IMG/VR virus record: IMGVR_UViG_3300029982_000015
Source of the DNA: a virus
Lineage: Duplodnaviria; Heunggongvirae; Uroviricota; Caudoviricetes
Length of the DNA: 64,000 bases
Strand: one strand, 5' to 3'
The translations under genes were made by a program, and so were the position numbers. The notes beneath the pieces were generated by a model. That model was not told the origin of the DNA and searched no databases. It saw only the letters and a program-made list of their open reading frames with translations. Position 1 is the first letter of the stretch; the number at the start of each line of letters is the position of its first letter. Below, piece after piece: positions 28,191 through 45,432 of this stretch.

Positions 28191-29696
28191 ATGGCTACTG
28201 CAACGGATGTGAGGATACTCGAAGCTAAGATGTTTGTCGCGGTGAATACCGCCGACAACAACAACAAATTTTGGAAGTATGAGCGCCTGTCTGCCCCCGT
28301 CACCGAGACCAACAACAAGAACAACTCCGAGACAGGTGACACTCGCATCACATGGGGTCGCGTAGGTGCGGCCAAGCCTGACCAGCAACTTATCATGTGG
28401 GATGTGACCACCATCGCTGGCAAGGTAGCCGACAAGACCGATACCAACAAAAAGGAAGTCATTAGCCGCCTCTCTTCGGGGCAAGGTCTGGACGGGCTGT
28501 CTCGCAAGGGCAAGCGTGACGACTACTACACTGAAGTTAAGACCATCGGTAACTCCACTCAGTCGTCACCGACGACCGCCATCCAAGTGGGACAGAAGCT
28601 GGCGAACGACCAAGTCCGCAAGCTGGCCGTCGCTGAGATTGCCGGTGGGTGCCAAATCACCGCCGCTCTCGTGAAAAAGCTGGCCGAAACCAACCGACAT
28701 GAACTCGTCGCTGCCACGTCCAAGGACAACAAGGGCGTAGACGGTGGTGGCATGGACATTGACCTTGAGACCGGCATGGTGAAGACCCCCCTCGGCGTGC
28801 TCACGCTCGATGCCATCAAGGAAGGTCGTGTGATTCTTGACCGGATGCTTCCCTTTGTCCAGCGTGCCGACACCGACTCCAAGTCATACATTACCTTGTT
28901 CGACCAATACCTTCGCAACATCCCCCAGTTCATCGGGTACAAGCGTGGGGCGCATGTAGACTTCATCAACATCGCCGCTCAGAACTCACTGCTTGACCAG
29001 TTGGAGACTTCGGTTGACCTTGCATTGCAACGCATGAAGGACGCTGAGGAAGCTGCCAAGGCACCGGGCACAAAGGCACCTGAAGCTGTCAAGCAGCAAA
29101 GCTTCTTCGAGTGCAAGCTACGGCTGCTGGATGAGGCCATTGAGAAGGCCATTTGGGAGCGCATCAGGAAGTCCTTCTTCGCGACCGTGAACTACGGCCA
29201 CACGTCTTCCAGTCTCAAGCCGGTGCGGATGTACGAAGTTACCATCCCGCACATGGTTCAAGCGTTCGATGCAGACGGTAAGAAGGTTGGTAACGTGCGT
29301 GAACTGTGGCACGGTACCCGCGTGTTCAACATCCTGTCTATCCTCAAGCGCGGCTTTGTCCTGCCGGGGGCGTTAACTTCCGCTCAGATTTGCGGTGCCA
29401 TGTTCGACAACGGCGTATACTTCTCAGACCAGTCCACCAAGAGCCTGAACTACTCACAGGGCTATTGGGACGGCGGCAGCAAGGACAACAACTGCTACAT
29501 GTTCCGTGCGGATGTTGCCATGGGTAAGCCTTACATCCCGACCGGACCTGATAACCGTGCAGCATCCTACTGCAAGAGGAATGGATTTGACTCCTGCCAC
29601 GCAGTCGCCAATCGCTCAGGTGTTCGCAACGACGAGCAGATTGTCTACCGCACGTCGCAGACCAACATCCGCTACCTCATCGAGTTCAACAAGTAA
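28191..29696 (+). CDS. poly(ADP-ribose) polymerase (WGR domain + PARP catalytic domain)
   Basis: WGR motif KFWKYE...TWGRVG. Catalytic LWHGTRVFNILSILKRGF (= PARP1 LWHGSRTTNFAGILSQGL), GVYFSDQSTKSLNYSQG (= GIYFADMVSKSANY), YMFRADVAMGKPY, and RNDEQIVYRTSQTNIRYLIEF (= [20 protein letters not shown]). H, Y and E triad residues are all present. Confidence 0.85.
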   Translation: MATATDVRILEAKMFVAVNTADNNNKFWKYERLSAPVTETNNKNNSETGDTRITWGRVGAAKPDQQLIMWDVTTIAGKVADKTDTNKKEVISRLSSGQGLDGLSRKGKRDDYYTEVKTIGNSTQSSPTTAIQVGQKLANDQVRKLAVAEIAGGCQITAALVKKLAETNRHELVAATSKDNKGVDGGGMDIDLETGMVKTPLGVLTLDAIKEGRVILDRMLPFVQRADTDSKSYITLFDQYLRNIPQFIGYKRGAHVDFINIAAQNSLLDQLETSVDLALQRMKDAEEAAKAPGTKAPEAVKQQSFFECKLRLLDEAIEKAIWERIRKSFFATVNYGHTSSSLKPVRMYEVTIPHMVQAFDADGKKVGNVRELWHGTRVFNILSILKRGFVLPGALTSAQICGAMFDNGVYFSDQSTKSLNYSQGYWDGGSKDNNCYMFRADVAMGKPYIPTGPDNRAASYCKRNGFDSCHAVANRSGVRNDEQIVYRTSQTNIRYLIEFNK

Positions 29697-30967: not shown

Positions 30968-31175
30968 GTCGTGATTATGAATATGAACTCGCACAGATGA
31001 AACAACGAGGGGCATCCCTTCGTCGGTTTCTAGCTGGTGGGAACGCCATCAGCGGCTTGATGCTCATCGCCCTCGCGGCGGTGGCACCCAGCTTTACTTT
31101 GCAGAATCGGCTGGTCTTTGGTTTTCTCGGCCTTTGCTGCCTCCTAATCATGCTCTTCGCTCTTCGGGTGAAATC

Positions 31176-33340: not shown

Positions 33341-34615
33341 ATGGACATGAGAGAAGCCGCTGAATTCGTGTTGAACACCCTCCGCAAGGCAGGATTTGAA
33401 GCCTACTTTGCTGGTGGTTGTGTTCGTGACTTTGTGATGGGACGGACTCCTAAGGATTTTGATATCACAACCAATGCCCGTCCAGAGCAGGTCACTCCCC
33501 TGTTTGATAAGACCATACCAGTCGGTGCTGCATTCGGCGTCGTGGTGGTGATGGTGGGAGGGTTTCAGTTTGAGGTCGCCACCTATCGTGCTGACGGTGC
33601 CTACAGCGATGGCCGTCGCCCCGATGAGGTTACCTACAGCAATTCCGCCGAGGAAGATGTAAAGCGGCGGGACTTCACCATGAACGGGCTCCTGATAGCC
33701 AATCCGTTTGATGCCCTCATGACCGATTACAGTCTCGGCGTCCTCGACTACGTGGGCGGCAGGGATGACATCGAAAACCGGGTCATCCGGTGTATCGGCA
33801 ATGCCGACACGCGCTTCAAAGAAGATGCATTGCGGATGTTGCGTGCGGTTCGCTTCGTTGGTCAGTTAGGCTTCGAGATAGAGGCGGAAACCTTCAAGGC
33901 CCTACAGGCGAACGTGGACAGCATAGTCAACGTCTCCCGCGAACGTGTTGCGGAGGAGTTGAAGAAGCTGACCACATCCAAGTTCGCTGCCAGAGGGTTG
34001 GCGGCGTTGGCGTCTACTGGTTTGCTGCGTCGTCTGCTGCCTGACGGTGTTTCCGATACGCGCTTCGCCTTTACACTGGAGCGGTTCGCTATGTTCCAAA
34101 CAACCGACCCCGTGATGGGTCTGGCGATGTTGCTGGCTGATACTCAGACCAACGAGATGGCAGCGTTGACCTGCGACAGCTTCAAGCTGTCTACGGATGA
34201 ACGTGACGCCATCTTGGGTGCGGTTAGAAATCAGGAAGCCATAGGTTCAATTGGCTCTCCGGCTGGTACCAAGCTGTTGGCTCGTGAGAAGGGTGTACTG
34301 CCGTATGCAGTAGACCTGTTCGAGCAGAACATAGGTTTGGGCTTTGCAAACGGTGTAGAGGCAGGGATGGATGCAGTACTGCGGTACAGGGCATTAACGC
34401 CGGAAGACATACGCCCATCACCGTTTGTCTCTGGCCGGGATTTGATAGAGATGGGATTCACGCCGGGGCCGATGTTCACCACGGTTTTAAGGGCGGTGGA
34501 GTTCGGTCAATTAAACGGCACATTGACCACCCGCGAACAGGCACTCGGCTTCGCTAAGTTCGAATCCGGGGTGCAGGAAACAGCAGCCTTCGTCAAGAGC
34601 GAAGCGGAAAGGTAA
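33341..34615 (+). CDS. cca: tRNA nucleotidyltransferase (CCA-adding enzyme), class II
   Basis: YFAGGCVRDFVMGRTPKDFDITT (GGxVRD...DxD) and EEDVKRRDFTMNGLL (RRDFTIN) head-domain motifs. Confidence 0.85.
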   Translation: MDMREAAEFVLNTLRKAGFEAYFAGGCVRDFVMGRTPKDFDITTNARPEQVTPLFDKTIPVGAAFGVVVVMVGGFQFEVATYRADGAYSDGRRPDEVTYSNSAEEDVKRRDFTMNGLLIANPFDALMTDYSLGVLDYVGGRDDIENRVIRCIGNADTRFKEDALRMLRAVRFVGQLGFEIEAETFKALQANVDSIVNVSRERVAEELKKLTTSKFAARGLAALASTGLLRRLLPDGVSDTRFAFTLERFAMFQTTDPVMGLAMLLADTQTNEMAALTCDSFKLSTDERDAILGAVRNQEAIGSIGSPAGTKLLAREKGVLPYAVDLFEQNIGLGFANGVEAGMDAVLRYRALTPEDIRPSPFVSGRDLIEMGFTPGPMFTTVLRAVEFGQLNGTLTTREQALGFAKFESGVQETAAFVKSEAER

Positions 34616-37316: not shown

Positions 37317-40300
37317 ATGGCATCGACTATTGTACGAATTGATAACCAAGTTTTGGTTCGCGACAAGGGTGAGGGTGAAATACTCCCGGTGGGAGCCCAA
37401 ATTGGAAATTGGTTTGTCAAGGGGGATATTGAGTACACCTACGAAATCCCCACACAAACCCGACTTTGTTTTTGTGGAAGGTGTAAGGGGCTTAACTGGC
37501 ATCATCCTCCGGGTTCAACTTTGATTGAATGCGGTAGCGGATTCAATCCGGCGTTAGCTCCTGACTTAATACAGGATGGCAAAGCCCGATATGAAATGGG
37601 GGCACGAACGGAGGAGGATTGCCTTCGTTTGTGGGATGAGAAAAAAGTAATCGCTGGAGCACTGCGTAACCCGAGTATTGAACACCCCGAGTGGGGCAAC
37701 CGCTTCAACAGGTACAACAAATGGGGGCAGTATCTTGGAATTCCCGACTACATCACAACCGATGAGTTGTTGAATCTCCTCCATTCAAACTACATCGAAG
37801 AGCGGCTGGCGTGGACTCGGGAAGCTACGCACGCAGCAACAGTTGAAATACGTTCAGCTTTTCAAAATCTTTTGCTGGCTGTCATTGGCGACTACGGTGG
37901 TTGCTTGGATGCATGTGCGAAGAAACTGAACTTGTCGGTCGAAACTCTCATCCAACGTTTGTGCGACTGCAAGAACGACGATGAGCGGCGGCAACTACTA
38001 GAAACCCCTAAGGAGCCTGAGACCCCTAAGGTTAGCCCCCCCGATACATGCCCGAAACCTGAAGACATCCCCACGTCTATCAAAAAACTTGACAAATTGA
38101 TGCGGACGTACCCCAGTGGATACTATGGCACGGCTGCAAATATACCTGAGATGTTAATACAACAGATGAACCAGTTACTGTGGATGCATTTAGAATTCCA
38201 CGGTCTCGAACGCTTACAACAGTGCCTTGCTGAGTGCATGACTGATACTCGTAAGCAATTTACAACCCTCTTTGAACAGGTGAAACGTTACCGAACCGAG
38301 AATCGCAACTGGATGCAAGCGTATTGCGTTTATTGGTTCGCTCACAGCGGACATCTTCTTGGGTTCAATCTAAGCGAGGCCGGAGCCGGAAAAACCAGCA
38401 CCGTATATGCAATTGCGAAGGAGTTGGAACTAGAGAATGTTCTTATCCTCGGTACAAAATCTACGATTGATAACGATAACGATAACGACAGTCAATGGAA
38501 GCTGATGGCAAAGAGGGAGAACGAGCACAGGCAAAACATCTTCAACTGCCGTGACGTATTCGACCTCAAGAAGTTGGAATCAAAGCGGCGTAATTATGTG
38601 CTAGTAACTGAGTACACGGTGCAGAACAACCCCGACCTAATTGACCAGCTTTCCAAGATTCGCTGGGATATGATTGTCACTGATGAGCCCCAAGTATTCT
38701 CCGGCTCTAATGATGATATAGACAGTACCAAACGGCTGAATCATTACTGTCGTCTTATTAGTGCAGCAATACAACTTAACCCTCGGTGCTTGAGGTACCT
38801 CATGTCAGCCACCCCCATTCGGTGTGAGGCCGAAGAGCTTATTCGAGTATTGGAGATAGTCTCAGGTGATGAACTTAAGAACGCAACTGGCGAGGGTGTA
38901 TCCGGCCTTTTGAAGCTCCGCTTGTTTCTGTTCCGCAATGGATTTCGCTTCTACATCAATCCTAACCTTCTACCCATTGTGAAGCCGATAACTCTTGGTG
39001 TATACGAAGAGGTTGAACTCTTCGAAGACCCAGTTGTGAACTGCGTCATTATGGCTCAGTATCAATCGAACATCCTTTCCGAGGGTCGCACGATACTGGA
39101 CATGGAGGTTGAAATGCTGCCGAGGCAGTGTGAGATTATCGAATCCAATCCAGTGCTTAAAAAAGCGTTTGTAGAAGCTTCATGCCCCATTCTTTATACA
39201 CAGTTCACCGACACAAAAAGCAATCGAATTGTCTTTGTGCTGAAAGAATGGGCTGAGAAAATGAGACCGGGGTACCCAGTGTACATCTACACTGGGATGC
39301 ACAAGCAAGACAAGCTGCTCAAAATCATTAAGAGGCATAAAGGTAAATGTACCCTCATTGCCAGTGCCCCCCTATCGGTTGGTCTGGACGGTCTTCAGAA
39401 TCTTTCTGACACCATGTTTATCATGGGCTCTCCGTGGCATTACGCTAACTTCGAGCAACTTCATCGCCGTATACGCCGCATTGGCTCACCCTTCTTGAAT
39501 TCTGGTGTGGCGTGCATCGTAATGCTGGCGAAGGATGCTGAGTATCACGAAAATCGTTGGTCACGGCTGTGTCAGCGGCGGCGAAGCAGCTTGGTTGTTT
39601 TAGATGGAACCATTGTCCCTATTAACCCAAAACGTATCGAACAGGAGTACCTCAGGAACAAGGATAACATCTTGCGGTTATCTGGAGTGGAAGTGACCCC
39701 CGCTGCCACCGTTGTGGATATTACCACGCCACTCAAGCCTCGGAAGTACACCCCACCTAGAACAGTAATGATGGATGTTCATCGGCTGTATGCGAACTCT
39801 CACTCAGCCACACTGCCACCCAAACGGCAAGGTGACCTGCTTATCGCTACCACGGGTAGAACATATAATCTAGCTGAGTATCATGCTGCCAATGAACTCA
39901 CCAGCAAAGCGTACAAGCTTGTGTATGATACCTTTGTAGTGAAGAGCACCAACCTACGTATTCTAAGCTTGGGCTGCGGTACAACTGAACCTAAGTATGC
40001 ACAGGAACTTGGCCTCCAGAATGTAACTTTTGTGGACATGCTCTTGACAGAGGAAGCGTATATTGAGTACCCTCAAATTTTACGACTCGACCGAAATGCA
40101 ACAAAACTTCCTGATGGTTCGTTCGACCTTATTGTGTCTGTCCTTTCAATATTCCGGTTGGATTACGAACGCAGCATCCGAGAAATGGCACGGCTATTAG
40201 CTCCTAAAGGCCGTGCCATCATTATTGAATCCTACCAATCTGAGAAAGCTGGTGGTAAACTTTGGGTACGGGAGAATTTAACCAAAGCATTCAAACTCAA

Positions 40301-40373
40301 CGGTCTGAAATTCAAAGAACCAAAACAGATGCCTAACCGGCATCTCCTGTTTGAAATACGAAAGGGGAGGTAG
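37317..40373 (+). CDS. SNF2/DEAD-like superfamily-2 helicase fused to a C-terminal class I SAM-dependent methyltransferase
   Basis: Walker A SEAGAGKTST, Walker B MIVTDEPQ, motif VI EQLHRRIRRIGS. C-terminal ILSLGCGTTEP (MTase motif I), DGSFDLIVSV, LLAPKGRAII. ~330-aa N-terminal region unassigned. Confidence 0.65.
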   Translation: MASTIVRIDNQVLVRDKGEGEILPVGAQIGNWFVKGDIEYTYEIPTQTRLCFCGRCKGLNWHHPPGSTLIECGSGFNPALAPDLIQDGKARYEMGARTEEDCLRLWDEKKVIAGALRNPSIEHPEWGNRFNRYNKWGQYLGIPDYITTDELLNLLHSNYIEERLAWTREATHAATVEIRSAFQNLLLAVIGDYGGCLDACAKKLNLSVETLIQRLCDCKNDDERRQLLETPKEPETPKVSPPDTCPKPEDIPTSIKKLDKLMRTYPSGYYGTAANIPEMLIQQMNQLLWMHLEFHGLERLQQCLAECMTDTRKQFTTLFEQVKRYRTENRNWMQAYCVYWFAHSGHLLGFNLSEAGAGKTSTVYAIAKELELENVLILGTKSTIDNDNDNDSQWKLMAKRENEHRQNIFNCRDVFDLKKLESKRRNYVLVTEYTVQNNPDLIDQLSKIRWDMIVTDEPQVFSGSNDDIDSTKRLNHYCRLISAAIQLNPRCLRYLMSATPIRCEAEELIRVLEIVSGDELKNATGEGVSGLLKLRLFLFRNGFRFYINPNLLPIVKPITLGVYEEVELFEDPVVNCVIMAQYQSNILSEGRTILDMEVEMLPRQCEIIESNPVLKKAFVEASCPILYTQFTDTKSNRIVFVLKEWAEKMRPGYPVYIYTGMHKQDKLLKIIKRHKGKCTLIASAPLSVGLDGLQNLSDTMFIMGSPWHYANFEQLHRRIRRIGSPFLNSGVACIVMLAKDAEYHENRWSRLCQRRRSSLVVLDGTIVPINPKRIEQEYLRNKDNILRLSGVEVTPAATVVDITTPLKPRKYTPPRTVMMDVHRLYANSHSATLPPKRQGDLLIATTGRTYNLAEYHAANELTSKAYKLVYDTFVVKSTNLRILSLGCGTTEPKYAQELGLQNVTFVDMLLTEEAYIEYPQILRLDRNATKLPDGSFDLIVSVLSIFRLDYERSIREMARLLAPKGRAIIIESYQSEKAGGKLWVRENLTKAFKLNGLKFKEPKQMPNRHLLFEIRKGR

Positions 40374-40377
40374 TAAC

Positions 40378-40677
40378 ATGGCAAAGTTAAAACTGGAATT
40401 GCAGCGTGGTGGGGTACAGTCTCTTGTGACCCCGAAGGGAACCAAAGTATTGACTGGAGTGCCGCGAGTTGTGGCAACCAAATTTGGTACATACTTTGTG
40501 TTTGCGAAGACAAACGAACATGCGGAGAGCCTCATCAAGGTCGAGGGAACCGGACACCGCGTGTTCGAAGAGTATACGGTTGATGGCGTCACTGTGTATC
40601 GTCAGACCAAGGACACACCCAACGGCCAACTTAAGAAGGGTGAGTGGCATGTTGACGCGGATACTGTAACCTTGTAG
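40378..40677 (+). CDS. small hypothetical protein between the helicase and the dCas12-like gene
   Basis: ATG 40378 after a GGGGAGG SD; 99 aa. Confidence 0.45.
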   Translation: MAKLKLELQRGGVQSLVTPKGTKVLTGVPRVVATKFGTYFVFAKTNEHAESLIKVEGTGHRVFEEYTVDGVTVYRQTKDTPNGQLKKGEWHVDADTVTL

Positions 40678-40742: not shown

Positions 40743-43313
40743 ATGAATTTCTCAGAAGTAAAAGCACACAGTATCGACGGGGTGTTCTACCTGACGATGA
40801 GCACCCACCCCGAACTTGCCAAGAAGGGCCGTCCTTTGGCACTCGTCAAATCTGGAAGTATGACGTTCTCCGACAATCAAGTAGCATTCAAGGGAGAGTC
40901 TTATCCCTTGGGGCTCACTCTCGCTGAGAACACCCCTTTAACCATCATTTTCACCAACCACAACAGCCGAGTGTTCAACATCGAACGCGGTGTGCAAACC
41001 AAGAAGCTTGAGAACGGTGACCTTTTCTTCCAAGGCGAGAACCGCAACCATGGTAACAAGACCAAGGAAGAAATAGCAGCCAAAGGGACCGGCTACCTCA
41101 CCCTCAAGAACCGGCTGTTCTACCATCATCGTGGTGTGGAGACCTCCGGTGCAGTTTTACCCAAGTGGGCCGCAGATAAGAAGACCAACTGGCGCTTGGT
41201 ATGGAATATTCTCGCCTTGTTACTCCAATGGACTTTGCAGAAGAGCGAGGATGTTGGAGACACAACAACAAACTGGACACCACACATCAAAAGTGTTGCC
41301 ATGCTTCTAACCGACGATAGGGAGGTGTCTGCATACCGTCGCACGACGTTGTCAGCCGAATCCACGGCCATCATCGAGCGCATCCGCAAAGTGATTGTGG
41401 ACTCCATGAACGCTCACTATGCTACTCGTGGACGCGAGGCTAAGTTACCTCTCCCGAAAAATCTTCGCGACAACGCCAAATACCCAGCCAACTTTTCTGA
41501 CCTTCGCTACTTCATATACCGCCTCGACAAGTATGAGAAGGAAGAAAAGGTTAAGGTTCTCGTTTGTGGGGTGGCTGAGAGCGACCCGGAGACCCTTCTC
41601 GCTAATTATCTGAAAACAGAACTGGGTAAATTGAAACGCCACAAAGAGCCCCTCAAAGCACTCAAGGCGCTTTTCACCAATATAGAGGAAACCAACTGGG
41701 CCGATGGCATGGGGGAGGTCTGGATGAATGGTGCAAAGCCATGGAGCGGTAACCTCTTCAATTACATCGGCAAGATGCTGGCTGTCCCCCCCGCAGAAAT
41801 GGGTGAAATATCCACTCGCTTTCAAGCTGTGTTGAAACAGCGTGAATCGAAGAATAGTCCTTACGACAAAGGCTGGCCGAAACACATCCGCATTGATGAG
41901 GACACATGGCAGGTCTCCTACGACGTACGTGGAAAGAAAACCCTCCGGGAAGTGCTGGATAACAAGGTTCCGCATATCCAGTTCACCGCCCCGCTGGATT
42001 CAATCAACACTGGAAAAGCATTTCGTCACACCGTAACGGCTGTTGGCGACGACTTTGTGGTCACACCTGAGTTCAAGCCTATGACACCGGGCTCCTGCGC
42101 TGCCAAGCGGTCATTGCACGGCGTTTCACTCACCGATGGCAAGGGCACCGACCCCTTCAAGTTGGCCGTCCTAGTTCACCGTGATGATGTTGACCTGAAC
42201 GCTAAGGTGAAAAAGGTCATTGTGTCCTTCAAGACAGAGAAGCGCAAAGTGGTTAAATACGCCGACCAAAATGGTCGAAACTCTGGTCTTGCGGCACCAG
42301 CGACCAAGCAGGTGCCCCAGTGCTACCTCAACTTCTGCCTTGCAGAAGTCAAGACTAACGAGAAGTACGATACGCGGGGCACCGGGTCGGCAAAGCTCAC
42401 CCTCGGATGGAAGCTGGCGAAAGACGACCAGTTGAAAATCGTTACCGAGTCTCTTCCGACCGGGCAGACAAACGACTACTACTTGCCTCTCGGCGAAGAG
42501 TGGAAGACCGAAGGACTCTTCGCTGAAGGATGTGACAGCACGAAGAAGGGCAACGTTTGGTCGCGCAAGTCGGGGTATACACTGGCATTCCGCACGTTAT
42601 ACGGATGGCCGGGTGAGGAAGCCATTAAAAATGCCCAGAAGGCAGAACTTCAGGCACACTTCCGCACAAATACTTTGACGTACAATTGGCTTAAGACTAC
42701 CCTCTTGTCACTACCGGAGCAGCTTGACCTTCTGCTCAACGCGGCCAAGGATGAGGGGTACAAGCTTATGACTGAGGAGCAGCGGAACATTGTTGACGCG
42801 GCAGGTTGGCGTATGGTTCGCCAGTCTGGCATGGTTCGTTACATCAACGAACTCCGCATTGGTGCCGGGACGCTAACTACAACCTACAACACTAACCCAA
42901 GTCGTCAGAGCGAGAAGTCCAAACCGCTCGGCTCTAACCCCGAACTCCTTCGTCTCTGGCTTCGCTGGCTTGAGTTCAACGACCGCCTTCGCACTGTAGA
43001 GCGTATGGTGCGTGAGAACCTGTTGGGACGCCGTAAAGCTTACTACTATGTTCTCGCACACCGCATCTGCGACCATGCGTCAACCATCTCTTACAAGAAA
43101 TTGAACCTCAAGGACGCTTCAGAGAAAGAGACCCGCGCCAAGAAGAAGGACAAGGGCGACAAAATGGCTTCCGATGCTTCGCAGAAGTACCGCTCGTGGG
43201 CATCACTGGCCGAATTTACAACCATCCTCAAGCACGTCGCATTCAAGCGTGGCGTGACGGTCGAGGAGGTTGTTGAAGCCCTTGTTGACAAAGCTCTGGC
43301 CGCGTCAGCTTAA
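40743..43313 (+). CDS. putative nuclease-dead Cas12/TnpB-derived CRISPR-associated protein (C-terminally truncated RuvC)
   Basis: 856 aa, immediately 5' of the CRISPR array. AKLTLGWKLAKDDQ aligns with TnpB RuvC-I vGIDLGLKTLAtlSDG, with the catalytic D replaced by T. TISYKKLNLKDAS aligns with RuvC-II vIAlEDLNVkGMt, with E-D replaced by K-K. MASDASQKYRSWASLAEFTTILKHVAFKRGVTVEEV aligns with TnpB iSDAGWGEFRRqLEYKAeWYGreVVVV. The protein ends before the TSQ/zinc-finger/RuvC-III segment; no CxxC pairs. Confidence 0.45.
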   Translation: MNFSEVKAHSIDGVFYLTMSTHPELAKKGRPLALVKSGSMTFSDNQVAFKGESYPLGLTLAENTPLTIIFTNHNSRVFNIERGVQTKKLENGDLFFQGENRNHGNKTKEEIAAKGTGYLTLKNRLFYHHRGVETSGAVLPKWAADKKTNWRLVWNILALLLQWTLQKSEDVGDTTTNWTPHIKSVAMLLTDDREVSAYRRTTLSAESTAIIERIRKVIVDSMNAHYATRGREAKLPLPKNLRDNAKYPANFSDLRYFIYRLDKYEKEEKVKVLVCGVAESDPETLLANYLKTELGKLKRHKEPLKALKALFTNIEETNWADGMGEVWMNGAKPWSGNLFNYIGKMLAVPPAEMGEISTRFQAVLKQRESKNSPYDKGWPKHIRIDEDTWQVSYDVRGKKTLREVLDNKVPHIQFTAPLDSINTGKAFRHTVTAVGDDFVVTPEFKPMTPGSCAAKRSLHGVSLTDGKGTDPFKLAVLVHRDDVDLNAKVKKVIVSFKTEKRKVVKYADQNGRNSGLAAPATKQVPQCYLNFCLAEVKTNEKYDTRGTGSAKLTLGWKLAKDDQLKIVTESLPTGQTNDYYLPLGEEWKTEGLFAEGCDSTKKGNVWSRKSGYTLAFRTLYGWPGEEAIKNAQKAELQAHFRTNTLTYNWLKTTLLSLPEQLDLLLNAAKDEGYKLMTEEQRNIVDAAGWRMVRQSGMVRYINELRIGAGTLTTTYNTNPSRQSEKSKPLGSNPELLRLWLRWLEFNDRLRTVERMVRENLLGRRKAYYYVLAHRICDHASTISYKKLNLKDASEKETRAKKKDKGDKMASDASQKYRSWASLAEFTTILKHVAFKRGVTVEEVVEALVDKALAASA

Positions 43314-43320
43314 AAACGAG

Positions 43321-43357
43321 AAACGCGAGAGGATAATCAATACTCTTCTCGCGTTTT
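43321..43357 (+). terminator. hairpin terminator after 40743..43313
   Basis: AAACGCGAGA / TCTCGCGTTT 10-bp stem, 16-nt loop, TTTT. Confidence 0.4.
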
Positions 43358-43364
43358 CCTGAGG

Positions 43365-43391
43365 TTCTAGTTAAGGCAATTGGTGTATAAT
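43365..43391 (+). promoter_or_regulatory. sigma70-like promoter upstream of the CRISPR array
   Basis: TATAAT at 43386-43391 with TG just upstream; candidate -35 TTCTAG; 20 nt before repeat 1. Confidence 0.35.
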
Positions 43392-43411: not shown

Positions 43412-44187
43412 CCTGTAGACTTACTGGATTTGAAGGCTGAATCCAACATAGCCGCCGATGCGTATATAGGTTCCTAACCTGTAGACTTACTGGATTTGAA
43501 GGCTGAATCCAACGGGAGAGCCCGAGGATAAAATCAATGGAGACCTGTAGACTTACTGGATTTGAAGGCTGAATCCAACAGAGATGATTGTTAATGAAAA
43601 GACATCAACCCTGTAGACTTACTGGATTTGAAGGCTGAATCCAACGTAACTTGGGTTGTGCCATAGGTGGCAACACCTGTAGACTTACTGGATTTGAAGG
43701 CTGAATCCAACCCAGCATACTGAGGGCCGTCATTGGTTCTCCCTGTAGACTTACTGGATTTGAAGGCTGAATCCAACTAGATCAGGTATTCGGAGTCTGA
43801 GTAAAGCCCTGTAGACTTACTGGATTTGAAGGCTGAATCCAACAGTCAGCTTTGGCACACCTGTAGATTTACTGGATTTGGAGGCTGAATCCAACGGAGG
43901 GATGTACCGTTGAACGTCGAAACCTGTATACTGGATTTGGAGGCTGAATCCAACATATTGCTGCACCGCTTACTGGATTTGAAGGCTGAATCCAACGAAG
44001 CTTGCCTTGGTACTGTCCCTGTAGACTTTACTGGATTTGAAGGCTAAATCCACCTACGGAACGCAGCCGTGATGTCTTTGGGTTGCCCGTATACCCACTG
44101 GATTTGAAGGCTGAATCCAACCCTGATGGCACTCACGTGTGGATGGCGGAACCTGTAGACTTACTGGATTTGAAGGCTGAATCCAAC
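43412..44187 (+). CRISPR. CRISPR array: 13 repeats, 36-bp consensus, 12 spacers
   Basis: Repeats 1-7 and 13 are perfect; 30-nt spacers at 66-bp period. Repeats 8-12 are decayed or truncated with 15-32-nt spacers. The repeat 3' half forms a 5-bp stem plus AAC before each spacer (type V-like handle). Confidence 0.9.
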
Positions 44188-44271
44188 TTCGCTACGCTCA
44201 CGGGAATTATGCTCTGCAAATGGGTTTGTGGAACGAGCCCATCAAGAAGGGACTAAAAAAATCCCAAAAAA

Positions 44272-44302
44272 CTATCCAAAACCTCGGAGTCTCCGATATA
44301 CT
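44272..44302 (+). promoter_or_regulatory. reiterated phage promoter; leaderless
   Basis: CTATCCAAAACC...CCGATATACT; ATG 44309 is 6 nt after the box. Confidence 0.55.
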
Positions 44303-44308
44303 ACATGT

Positions 44309-44722
44309 ATGAAGGAACTCCACATTACCTCATCGAAGATTGTGGTCTCGGCCAACAACCTGTGTAAGTCTGGGTACTCCGTCAGCCACAACGTGAAGGG
44401 TATCCTCCCCGGATGTCGTAAAGTTGCCATCCTTTTTGTTTCAACCAGCACAGGCTGTGTCTGGGTCAAAAATCTGTACAGCCACAACGGTGAGGCACAC
44501 ATCCATCCCGACCACTGGGCACAGCTTATCAAGGCCACGCCGGTCGTCTCCTCCACACTCAGGAACTTTGAGGTTACCCTGACCCCTGCGATTATCGCGG
44601 ATGCTTACAACTACGTTACGAGCATCACTGTTGAACCGGCCATCAGGAGCCAAGAGAAGTCCCCCAACTACATACCGAAGCTCGACCCTATGGTGGTCGT
44701 AGGAGATTCCAATGGCAAGTAA
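44309..44722 (+). CDS. hypothetical protein
   Basis: ATG 44309 (MKELHITSS...) chosen by promoter geometry; the track ORF 44228 begins upstream of the promoter. Confidence 0.45.
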   Translation: MKELHITSSKIVVSANNLCKSGYSVSHNVKGILPGCRKVAILFVSTSTGCVWVKNLYSHNGEAHIHPDHWAQLIKATPVVSSTLRNFEVTLTPAIIADAYNYVTSITVEPAIRSQEKSPNYIPKLDPMVVVGDSNGK

Positions 44723-44856: not shown

Positions 44857-45432
44857 ATGCCGCGTCTTTGTTGGTGGACTGAGGCCAACCCTCTCGCACT
44901 CGAAAGCGACACAGCGTTCTCCCGGCCACGCCTCAACACCAACTACATCCAGACTTCGTTGGATAGCCTGATTCACATGGTGTACCACCGGGGTCTCATC
45001 GACAGCCCCGACTATCAGCGGGGCTATGTCTGGACTCTGGAAGACAAGCAGAAACTTATTCGGAGCATTTTCAACCGGGCTGACATTGGCAAGTTCGTTT
45101 TCCTTGAGGATGAGAACTACCGTGAGTATCGGCTGGAAGTCATCGACGGCAAGCAACGGCTTCGGGCTATCACGGAATTTTACGAGGGTCGCTTCGAGTT
45201 TGAAGGTAAGACGTGGTATCAGCTTTCACGGCGGGACAAATATGCGTTCTGCGACATCATGATTCAAGCGGCTACGCTACAACGTGGTAAAGTCAAGCGG
45301 TCGGATGTTCTCTGGCTGTTTCTCCAGTTGAACGCTGGCGGCGTCCCTCAGACCGAGGAGCACATCGCCTACGCTCGTAAGCTGTACGAGGCTGAAATTG
45401 CGAACGAGAAGGACATGGAAATAATTTCCTGA
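44857..45432 (+). CDS. DUF262 / ParB-like nuclease-domain protein
   Basis: YQRGYVWT...IGKFVF...VIDGKQRLRAI (the DGQQR motif of DUF262/GmrSD N-terminal domain). Confidence 0.55.
   Translation: MPRLCWWTEANPLALESDTAFSRPRLNTNYIQTSLDSLIHMVYHRGLIDSPDYQRGYVWTLEDKQKLIRSIFNRADIGKFVFLEDENYREYRLEVIDGKQRLRAITEFYEGRFEFEGKTWYQLSRRDKYAFCDIMIQAATLQRGKVKRSDVLWLFLQLNAGGVPQTEEHIAYARKLYEAEIANEKDMEIIS

Follow-up and report, generated by a model that had tools for sequence, protein, structure and literature searches.

When a phage genome carries a clustered regularly interspaced short palindromic repeat (CRISPR) array, does it stand alone, or does it supply guides to a protein encoded beside it? The question is raised by a 64,000-nucleotide stretch of viral DNA (record IMGVR_UViG_3300029982_000015; Caudoviricetes), here called the window, in which a short array with partly decayed repeats occupies positions 43412 to 44187. 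Here, we report that the array lies just downstream of an open reading frame (ORF) for an 856-aa protein with a predicted Cas12 fold, from which the RuvC catalytic residues have been lost, and that gene and array are conserved together in related phages, with a covarying repeat hairpin. The array is probably the guide-RNA locus of this Cas12m-like, RuvC-dead effector, with interference by CRISPR RNA (crRNA)-guided DNA binding without cleavage. The features concerned are as follows.

40743 to 43313, + strand: 856-aa Cas12m-like effector, RuvC predicted to be inactivated (PADLOC, motif alignments, Foldseek, profile search)
43412 to 44187, + strand: CRISPR array, 13 repeat units and 12 spacers (read directly, repeat finder, pattern search)
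44220 to 44243, + strand: probable degenerate terminal (14th) handle, ATGGGTTTGTGGAACGAGCCCATC (marginal covariance-model match)

The array and its repeat

Sequence reading, a repeat finder and a pattern search all gave 13 direct copies of the 36-nt repeat CCTGTAGACTTACTGGATTTGAAGGCTGAATCCAAC on the + strand. As the preliminary description had stated, seven perfect copies (units 1 to 7, with 30-nt spacers) are followed by five decayed or irregular ones (units 8 to 12) and a last perfect one (unit 13). R8 has 2 substitutions, R9 is missing 4 nt from its 5' part, R10 retains only CTTA and the core, R11 differs by 2 substitutions and one inserted nucleotide, and R12 has 4 substitutions, in its 5' part. 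Spacers 1 to 6 and 12 are 30 nt long; along the decayed stretch, spacer lengths run ~16, 27, 14 to 15, 21, and 31 to 32 nt, then 30 nt.

The 24-nt 3' core of the repeat, CTGGATTTGAAGGCTGAATCCAAC, was matched 13 times in the window at ≤3 mismatches, always inside the array (0.00 expected in 100 shuffles), and neither the pattern search nor a covariance model found repeat copies elsewhere in the window. The repeat did not prove to be a dispersed genomic repeat (copies are confined to the array and to related phage contigs), nor the spacers to be near-identical (they are mutually unrelated); the earlier proposal of a true CRISPR-type array in a phage-like genome is borne out by the regular repeats and unrelated spacers. 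Neither the array region nor the window as a whole gave an Rfam match. The covariance model recovered the same 13 units plus a marginal hairpin at 44220 to 44243 (12 bits under the other units; E 3.5), which lies in register, 32 nt past unit 13, retains pairing at six of six stem positions by virtue of a compensatory A-U to G-C change and a single wobble, and is probably a degenerate terminal unit.

Each repeat folds as UGGAUU, a 9-nt loop and AAUCCA, then AC, which places a 6-bp stem directly 5' of the spacer. The hairpin noted earlier (GGAUU, 9 nt, AAUCC) therefore exists but is longer than described, and the claim of a type V-like repeat with a hairpin handle directly 5' of each spacer was upheld. 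Across related phages, 1 to 2 nt separate stem and spacer, which is the Cas12 arrangement. The 24-nt 3' core (6-bp stem, 9-nt loop, AC) is the predicted crRNA 5' handle; its hairpin structure and covariation are strongly supported.

The gene upstream of the array

The array had been read as an independent, stand-alone mini-array, but the Cas12m-like effector gene ends 98 nt upstream of its first repeat, on the same strand. This ORF (40743 to 43313) gave no match in Pfam, NCBIfam, or PHROG and no sequence match in the PDB. PADLOC matched residues 742 to 844 to Cas12u1/Cas12f models (V-U1 model, E 1.3e-5). An exhaustive profile search of 1.8 billion representative proteins returned one close homolog (P0001, 55% identity), a fragment of the effector itself, and about two dozen distant proteins of 450 to 860 aa; a word-index search with a 13-sequence alignment returned P0001 alone. 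All 10 of the distant relatives of 690 to 860 aa that were scanned match Cas12u1/Cas12f models, and the distant relative P0003 has a Cas12f1-like TNB domain and Cas12m as its best PDB sequence match.

An AlphaFold2 model built from the 13-sequence alignment (predicted local distance difference test [pLDDT], 72; predicted template modelling score [pTM], 0.48) was compared with the PDB using Foldseek. Cas12m2 came top (E 2.9e-9, probability 1.0), and the first 26 matches were all Cas12, with GoCas12m, Cas12o1, Cas12X, Cas-lambda2 (E 3e-5), and Cas12f among the matches. A profile of the clade with its active relatives likewise placed Cas12m structures first (E 3.7e-31 and 4.6e-24), a strong match that needs the active relatives in the profile, as the window protein alone has no PDB sequence match. 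Taken together, PADLOC, Foldseek, and the profile search identify the ORF, at the level of sequence and modelled fold, as a Cas12 whose nearest known type is Cas12m.

In active relatives, the motifs are GxDIGWR (RuvC-I), LNxExxF (RuvC-II), a CxxC...CxxC zinc finger, and DxDxNAA (RuvC-III). The window effector reads KLTLGWK at RuvC-I (D to T) and KLNLKD at RuvC-II (E to K) and ends ~20 aa after GVTVEEV, before the zinc finger/TNB and RuvC-III; unlike P0003, it has no Cas12f1-like_TNB match in Pfam. The positions of the intact D-E-D triad of type V are thus T, K, and absent. Several accepted type V subtypes are also without a RuvC triad (PMC12669027), so a dead triad does not exclude membership of type V. 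P0001 has K and K at the RuvC-I and RuvC-II columns and the same truncation, and the clade of P0004, P0028, and P0029 (~23% identical) has V or S at RuvC-I, E at RuvC-II, and Y at the RuvC-III aspartate, with a CCCH zinc finger kept; more distant relatives have D/E/D at the catalytic columns. Catalytic inactivity is predicted for the entire phage clade, with the window's branch the most reduced. The downstream ORF at 44228 to 44722 was considered as a source of the missing RuvC-III/zinc finger and rejected, its translation holding no CxxC pair and no DxDxNAA.

The lineage, with 5 protein clusters found in a total of 5.8 billion, is very rare. No member of the effector family was found in IMG/VR by protein or repeat search, and the effector has no homolog in 50,697 GenBank phage records.

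Recurrence of the locus in related phages

Two further genes precede the effector gene (contigs and proteins related to the window carry L and P numbers below).

37317 to 40373, + strand: 1018-aa fusion of a superfamily 2 (SF2)-type helicase and a class I S-adenosylmethionine (SAM) methyltransferase (Pfam, PHROG)
40378 to 40677, + strand: 99-aa conserved protein, between the helicase-methyltransferase and effector genes (translation, alignment)

The order helicase-methyltransferase, ~99-aa protein, dead Cas12, and array was found in four of four related phage lineages. P0001 is encoded on six metagenome contigs, on each of which genes for a helicase-methyltransferase of 1050 aa and a small ORF come before it, and on the contigs that extend past its gene (L001 and L002) there is an array of 37 to 38 units with the repeat GTTTTATACCTACTGGATTTTATGGCTGAATCCAAC, whose 3' 24 nt match those of the window repeat except for a loop triplet and whose 5' 12 nt differ. 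P0029 (L011) and P0004 (L012) stand in the same gene order as the window module, and the pairing of effector and array recurs in relatives at 55% and ~23% protein identity. The downstream array of L011 has >20 units with the handle CUCAAC-UGUGGUCUG-GUUGAG.

Repeat units were also seen away from the main arrays. L011 has a second array upstream of the module (L011:2120-2530), in which the loop UGUAGUUUG is kept while the 6-bp stem differs, with compensating changes, from unit to unit. A mini-array of three units in L012 (L012:3641-3790) lies between the CCA-enzyme gene and a 76-aa ORF, upstream of the module; its handle, UGGAUU-UGUGGUUUG-AAUUCA, was found by the covariance model though absent from the training set. 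A solitary repeat of full length (GTTTTATACCTACTGGATTTGTAGGCTGAATCCAAC) was seen on L007, a contig from one of the samples that also gave the sister phage (L004); unique spacer-like sequence follows it, directly upstream of two tRNA-like genes (L007:1279-1346), and by its sequence it resembles a delocalised single-guide unit set apart from the main array.

In Pfam, the helicase-methyltransferase matches Methyltransf_11 above threshold and ResIII and Helicase_C weakly, below threshold; its PHROG annotation is DNA helicase. Orthologs occupy the same position in L001 (55% identity), L012 (26%), and L011 (29%, cut by the contig end), and none was found in the 50,697 GenBank phage records. The 99-aa protein shows 40 to 72% identity in all four lineages (alignment A7), and its gene was called by gene callers on other contigs of the window's phage; it gave a sub-threshold DUF7352 match and an unusable AlphaFold2 model (pLDDT 44).

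The helicase-methyltransferase is a possible partner of the effector. The dead Cas12 might recruit it, possibly with the 99-aa protein, to sites specified by the crRNA, for unwinding, remodelling, or methylation; we regard this as unlikely, though it is the main live alternative to a model of binding only. Consistent with recruitment, the four-part module is present in every lineage examined and persists where the upstream gene order differs (L001 versus the window and L012), the effector and helicase-methyltransferase have no homologs among GenBank phages whereas the nearby PARP-like gene does, and the 99-aa protein is better conserved than the effector (40 to 46% versus ~23%). The sample, however, comprises four related phage lineages only, and L012 is collinear with the window for the PARP and CCA-enzyme genes, so that adjacency may be plain synteny; moreover, the methyltransferase is of a generic class I kind (Methyltransf_11) with no DNA-methyltransferase signature, and the helicase motifs fall under Pfam thresholds. 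Rather improbable is the fuller form of the idea, a four-part system in which the dead Cas12 brings the helicase-methyltransferase and the 99-aa protein to DNA or RNA sites and the arrays are loose handle-plus-short-guide units, some with internal promoters and some solitary.

The repeats of these phages covary. In alignment A5, 97.4% of cells pair and six of six pairs change on both sides (0/500 shuffles), and in alignment A8 the paired share is 96.7%, with another 18 pair types (0/500 shuffles), against ≤58% in slid controls; the sequences fall into few related groups, and the register of the L011 upstream units was chosen by eye. By these alignments, the handle co-evolves with the phage effector protein, in that repeats change along with the protein while the 6-bp stem and 9-nt loop are kept.

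The repeat had 0 matches in IMG/VR, metagenomes gave related phage contigs only, and among 185,579 species-representative bacterial and archaeal genomes no carrier of the repeat core was found, bar one chance match; this single match, in a Rhodospirillaceae metagenome-assembled genome, lies inside a coding gene and was rejected as chance.

These distributions bear on two other accounts. In one, implied by the preliminary description, the locus is an orphan mini-array served by a Cas effector of the host, with no relation to the upstream ORF. Orphan mini-arrays are well known in phages (PMC11656645), and the window has no cas1, cas2, or cas4; we nonetheless give this account hardly any credence, as the upstream ORF has a modelled Cas12 fold closest to Cas12m, an array always comes after the effector gene and has a handle that covaries with the effector, and no species-representative host genome carries the repeat. 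In the other, the locus is a counter-defence decoy, the dead Cas12 sequestering host type V crRNAs or the array transcripts soaking up a host effector. Such roles have been proposed for phage RuvC-dead Cas9 (II-C2) and for solitary repeat units (PMC11656645, PMC12669027), and the predicted catalytic death of the effector, the lack of adaptation genes in the window, and the solitary repeat elsewhere in the genome of a related phage (L007) would fit. We consider a decoy very unlikely all the same: no species-representative bacterial or archaeal genome carries the repeat core beyond the match within a coding gene, the handle co-evolves with a phage protein and not with a host system, and long arrays with diverse spacers and leader-end turnover are things that a decoy does not need.

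Decay of repeats was found not to be a peculiarity of the window array, since the arrays of related phages erode likewise. Identity to the consensus is as follows.

Window array: 24-nt handle, 0.99; repeat 5' 12 nt, 0.81; first 12 nt of spacer, 0.40
L001 array: 24-nt handle, 0.92; repeat 5' 12 nt, 0.78; first 12 nt of spacer, 0.34
L011 array: 24-nt handle, 0.88; repeat 5' 12 nt, 0.51; first 12 nt of spacer, 0.37

In the window, the distance from one core to the next falls from 42 nt to a minimum of 18 nt, and in L001 gaps of 3 to 11 nt are reached; the deletions hit spacer 3' ends and repeat 5' ends and spare the handle. Conservation of the handle while its flanking bases decay indicates, as far as such comparisons can, that the 24-nt handle is under purifying selection. 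Since the pattern of decay fits a Cas12-type crRNA (handle plus the first 15 to 30 nt of spacer), decayed units may still be functional guides. The arrays are of interest as a natural indication of which portion of a type V repeat is needed for function and as a record of decay by unit loss and truncation.

Within the window's own phage, the exact effector protein occurs on 19 contigs from several samples. Units 1 to 13 are unchanged on three contigs (L015 to L017), and L018 is identical as far as the contig runs; on L013, unit 8 and nothing else is missing (59 nt), which confirms the earlier suggestion of unit loss by recombination in mid-array. Across the five contigs compared, there was this one internal deletion and no leader-end spacer gain. 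On L013, the helicase-methyltransferase is called as two ORFs (649 and 364 aa; L013:575-3631) and not as one of 1018 aa, which could be a real disruption or an assembly error.

Erosion of this kind might mark a non-functional remnant of a once active type V system. The dead nuclease site, the truncated protein, the eroded repeats, the shortened spacers, and the lack of targets in the collections searched would all agree with that. Nevertheless, a full-length ORF has been maintained across lineages diverged to ~23% identity, the exact protein recurs on the 19 contigs, handles keep 0.88 to 0.99 identity while their flanks decay, which points to purifying selection, and a related phage gains new leader-end spacers; we hold a remnant to be highly improbable. 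Conservation of ORF and handle, the co-evolving repeat, and the lack of a host repeat are the reasons for which decoy, orphan array, and remnant are each disfavoured in comparison with a guide-RNA locus of the phage's own effector.

The strand on which that locus is read was assessed from signals around the array, of which two lie between it and the effector gene.

43320 to 43357, + strand: terminator-like hairpin with U-run, directly after the effector stop codon (free energy, −19.5 kcal/mol; z, −5.0)
43384 to 43391, + strand: −10-like element TG+TATAAT, candidate array promoter (read directly in the sequence)

None of 200 shuffles folded as well as the hairpin, and equivalent terminator-like hairpins, different in sequence in each, stand at the same place in L001 and L011; the array does follow a terminator, as had been stated. 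A promoter of its own, also claimed, comes down to the −10-like box by itself, and no exact TGNTATAAT occurs in the window. The leader of L001 carries TGCTATAAT, and the L001 array holds two internal TGGTATAAT elements. The extended −10-like elements (TGGTATAATAGAAA(A)CAA) within that array (L001:13240-13257 and L001:14265-14282) each stand in for the 5' 12 nt of a repeat, directly upstream of the handle, and may, from their sequence and position, be internal promoters that start transcripts at the handle.

The arrays of L001 and L002 differ solely at the effector-proximal end, in the number of unique spacers (two versus one), which has the signature of leader-end spacer acquisition in the sister phage. 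A + strand orientation of the array is supported by these sequence features, namely, the effector gene on the same strand, the terminator-like hairpins, the −10-like boxes, the internal elements of L001, and the effector-proximal spacer polymorphism. Neither a pattern search nor a covariance model found an anti-repeat for a trans-activating crRNA (tracrRNA) in the 64-kb window. A reverse orientation with a tracrRNA-type system was rejected on this ground and because the repeat folds on itself with covariation, the spacer polymorphism is effector-proximal, and the promoter-like and terminator elements lie on the + strand. Just downstream of the array, two terminator-like hairpins lie on the − strand (44249 to 44296), while the neighbouring genes are apparently on the + strand.

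Proposed function, known systems, and genomic setting

If the array is the guide-RNA locus of the dead effector, we infer the following course. The + strand would be transcribed from a promoter just downstream of the effector terminator or by read-through, and each unit would yield a crRNA in which the 24 nt at the repeat's 3' end (UGGAUU, 9-nt loop, AAUCCA, AC) are joined to the first 15 to 30 nt of the spacer, with a predicted 5' end at or just upstream of CUGGAUUU. The crRNA would be bound by the 856-aa Cas12m-like protein encoded immediately upstream, which most likely cannot cut DNA because the three RuvC catalytic residues and the zinc-finger/RuvC-III segment are missing. Guided binding would then block transcription or replication of targets, as Cas12m does, the targets presumably being genes of the host or rival mobile elements. 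The mature guide would not require the repeat's 5' 12 nt or the spacer's 3' end, which would explain erosion of these parts in older units while the handle is preserved.

Cas12m works with a single short (50- to 60-nt) crRNA and no tracrRNA, does not need RuvC to process this crRNA, and brings about interference by protospacer-adjacent motif (PAM)-dependent DNA binding, with no cleavage, that blocks transcription or replication (PMC11013384, PMC10442227); in type V, a trend towards independent RuvC inactivation is recognised (PMC12669027, PMC10691335). Both crRNA maturation and interference are hence compatible with a dead RuvC.

Several results weigh against this course of events. The window protein's own similarity to Cas12 models is weak and covers ~100 C-terminal residues, and its structure model is moderate (pLDDT 72, pTM 0.48), with a global TM of ~0.2 to 0.3, although a low value is expected for a multi-domain protein modelled without nucleic acid. 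Loss of the DED triad predicts, but does not prove, loss of nuclease activity, and a partner nuclease could be recruited. The candidate promoter at 43384 to 43391 was not reported by a consensus promoter scan. PADLOC found no Cas1, Cas2, or Cas4 among the 91 ORFs of the 64-kb window. No protospacer of the window spacers was found in the window, in related loci, or in GenBank phages; PLSDB plasmids gave two matches at E~9, which is chance level, and a search of IMG/VR with the 22-nt 5' seeds of spacers 1, 2, 4, and 5 gave none, which leaves targeting unproven and no PAM derivable.

One spacer of a related phage deserves mention. L001 spacer 19 matches the window at 31045 to 31062 (17/18 positions; ~0.03 expected over all L001 spacers), a weak hint, on sequence similarity, of targeting between related phages; the match is missing from the listing of a wider re-search and is too weak to use.

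Among known systems, Cas12m (V-M, formerly V-U1; MmCas12m2, GoCas12m) is the best structural and profile match. Shared with it are a single effector adjoining an array, without adaptation genes or sign of a tracrRNA (within the 64-kb window), a predicted hairpin handle 5' of the spacer, and a non-canonical RuvC site. Unlike Cas12m (~600 aa), the window effector has 856 aa; unlike the described clades (triads HEK/HQK, HDD, DED, and NED), it is without zinc-finger/TNB and RuvC-III; unlike plasmid and prophage Cas12m, it is encoded by large lytic-type phages; and its helicase-methyltransferase and 99-aa neighbours are conserved and its arrays strongly eroded. We do not file it as a member of V-M, because compact size and a TNB/zinc finger with RuvC-III are lacking and its own sequence match is marginal.

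In Cas12k (V-K CRISPR-associated transposons), V-O, V-P, and Cas12c, RuvC was likewise inactivated independently, with RNA-guided DNA binding retained (PMC12669027, PMC10691335), and Cas12o1 is among the top structural matches of the window effector. However, V-K transposons differ in that no TnsB, TnsC, or TniQ occurs among the neighbours in the window or related loci and there is no tracrRNA, and in Cas12c the RuvC domain remains active for processing. The Cas-Phi (Cas12j) and Cas-lambda systems of huge phages and the Cas12m of myxophage MV-1 resemble the locus in being compact and in having one effector and an array without Cas1/Cas2 on a large phage genome, with spacers presumed to target hosts or rival elements. 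Cas-Phi and Cas-lambda keep an intact DED RuvC and cut DNA, whereas the window RuvC is predicted to be dead; neither has a sequence match to the window effector, and in fold Cas-lambda2 (E 3e-5) ranks under Cas12m/Cas12o; Cas-Phi3 reaches E 0.57 for the relative P0003. Assignment of the effector to Cas-Phi, Cas-lambda, or Cas12k was rejected on the weaker matches, the dead RuvC, and the absence of transposase genes. The MV-1 protein has 610 aa and retains DED (a 2026 preprint calls it the first phage Cas12m; bioRxiv 10.64898/2026.09.14.751636), unlike the window effector with its 856 aa and lost triad.

Nuclease-dead RNA-guided proteins, some of them prophage or phage borne, also include TldR (TnpB-like nuclease-dead repressors) and phage II-C2 dead Cas9 (dCas9), which are used for repression or counter-defence (PMC10705468, PMC12669027). 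TldRs differ in size (~350 to 450 aa) and in having a single omega-RNA-like guide and no CRISPR array, and dCas9 is of type II and needs a tracrRNA. By analogy only, type IV-A (CasDinG) and type I Cascade-Cas3 also encode a cleavage-incompetent RNA-guided binder beside an SF2 helicase; those are multi-subunit class 1 systems, whereas here the binder is a single Cas12-like protein and the helicase is fused to a SAM methyltransferase. Orphan phage mini-arrays and solitary repeats differ in that the present array has a cognate Cas12-like gene 98 nt upstream and a repeat carried by no species-representative host genome.

The locus is best described as a rare phage-borne, RuvC-dead, truncated Cas12m-like effector with eroding arrays and a conserved helicase-methyltransferase/small-protein neighbourhood. 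If the proposed function is correct, this would be a natural dead Cas12 of large lytic-type phages, which would extend binding-only interference from plasmid-borne Cas12m to phages, in an effector that has lost the whole RuvC-III/zinc-finger segment and not residues alone. As a practical matter, it might serve as a Cas12 scaffold that is dead by nature and whose handle is short (24 nt). The invariant neighbourhood makes effector recruitment by a class 2 system a testable hypothesis; were it true, a class 2 effector would direct RNA-guided unwinding or methylation.

The remaining annotated features of the window are as follows.

413 to 1636: RIIB-like lysis-inhibition homolog
23988 to 25235: ClpX-like ATP-dependent protease homolog
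25692 to 26900: TnpB-like ORF, 402 aa (matches OrfB_IS605 and Cas12f1-like_TNB)
28191 to 29696: PARP-like ORF (best homologs in 300- to 385-kb Xanthomonas/Stenotrophomonas jumbo phages)
33341 to 34615: CCA-adding enzyme (PolyA_pol family)
44857 to 45432: GmrSD_N-like (DUF262-type) ORF, 191 aa, ~670 nt downstream of the array (matches PADLOC NsnA and PD-T4-2_A models)

The window has no nucleotide match to GenBank phages and, by its gene content, looks like part of a large phage; the RIIB-like and ClpX-like genes are consistent with a large virulent one. No tRNA gene was found in the window, despite the CCA-adding enzyme, and the PARP-like and CCA-adding enzyme genes also lie upstream of the module in L012. 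The 402-aa TnpB-like ORF is a second RuvC-family gene in the window's phage, unrelated to the effector; its motifs include CIDIGLN and NADVNGSANI, zinc-finger cysteines of the CxxC type are lacking, and its RuvC-II position is unusual. In the sister phage, a GmrSD_N gene lies elsewhere, on the opposite strand.

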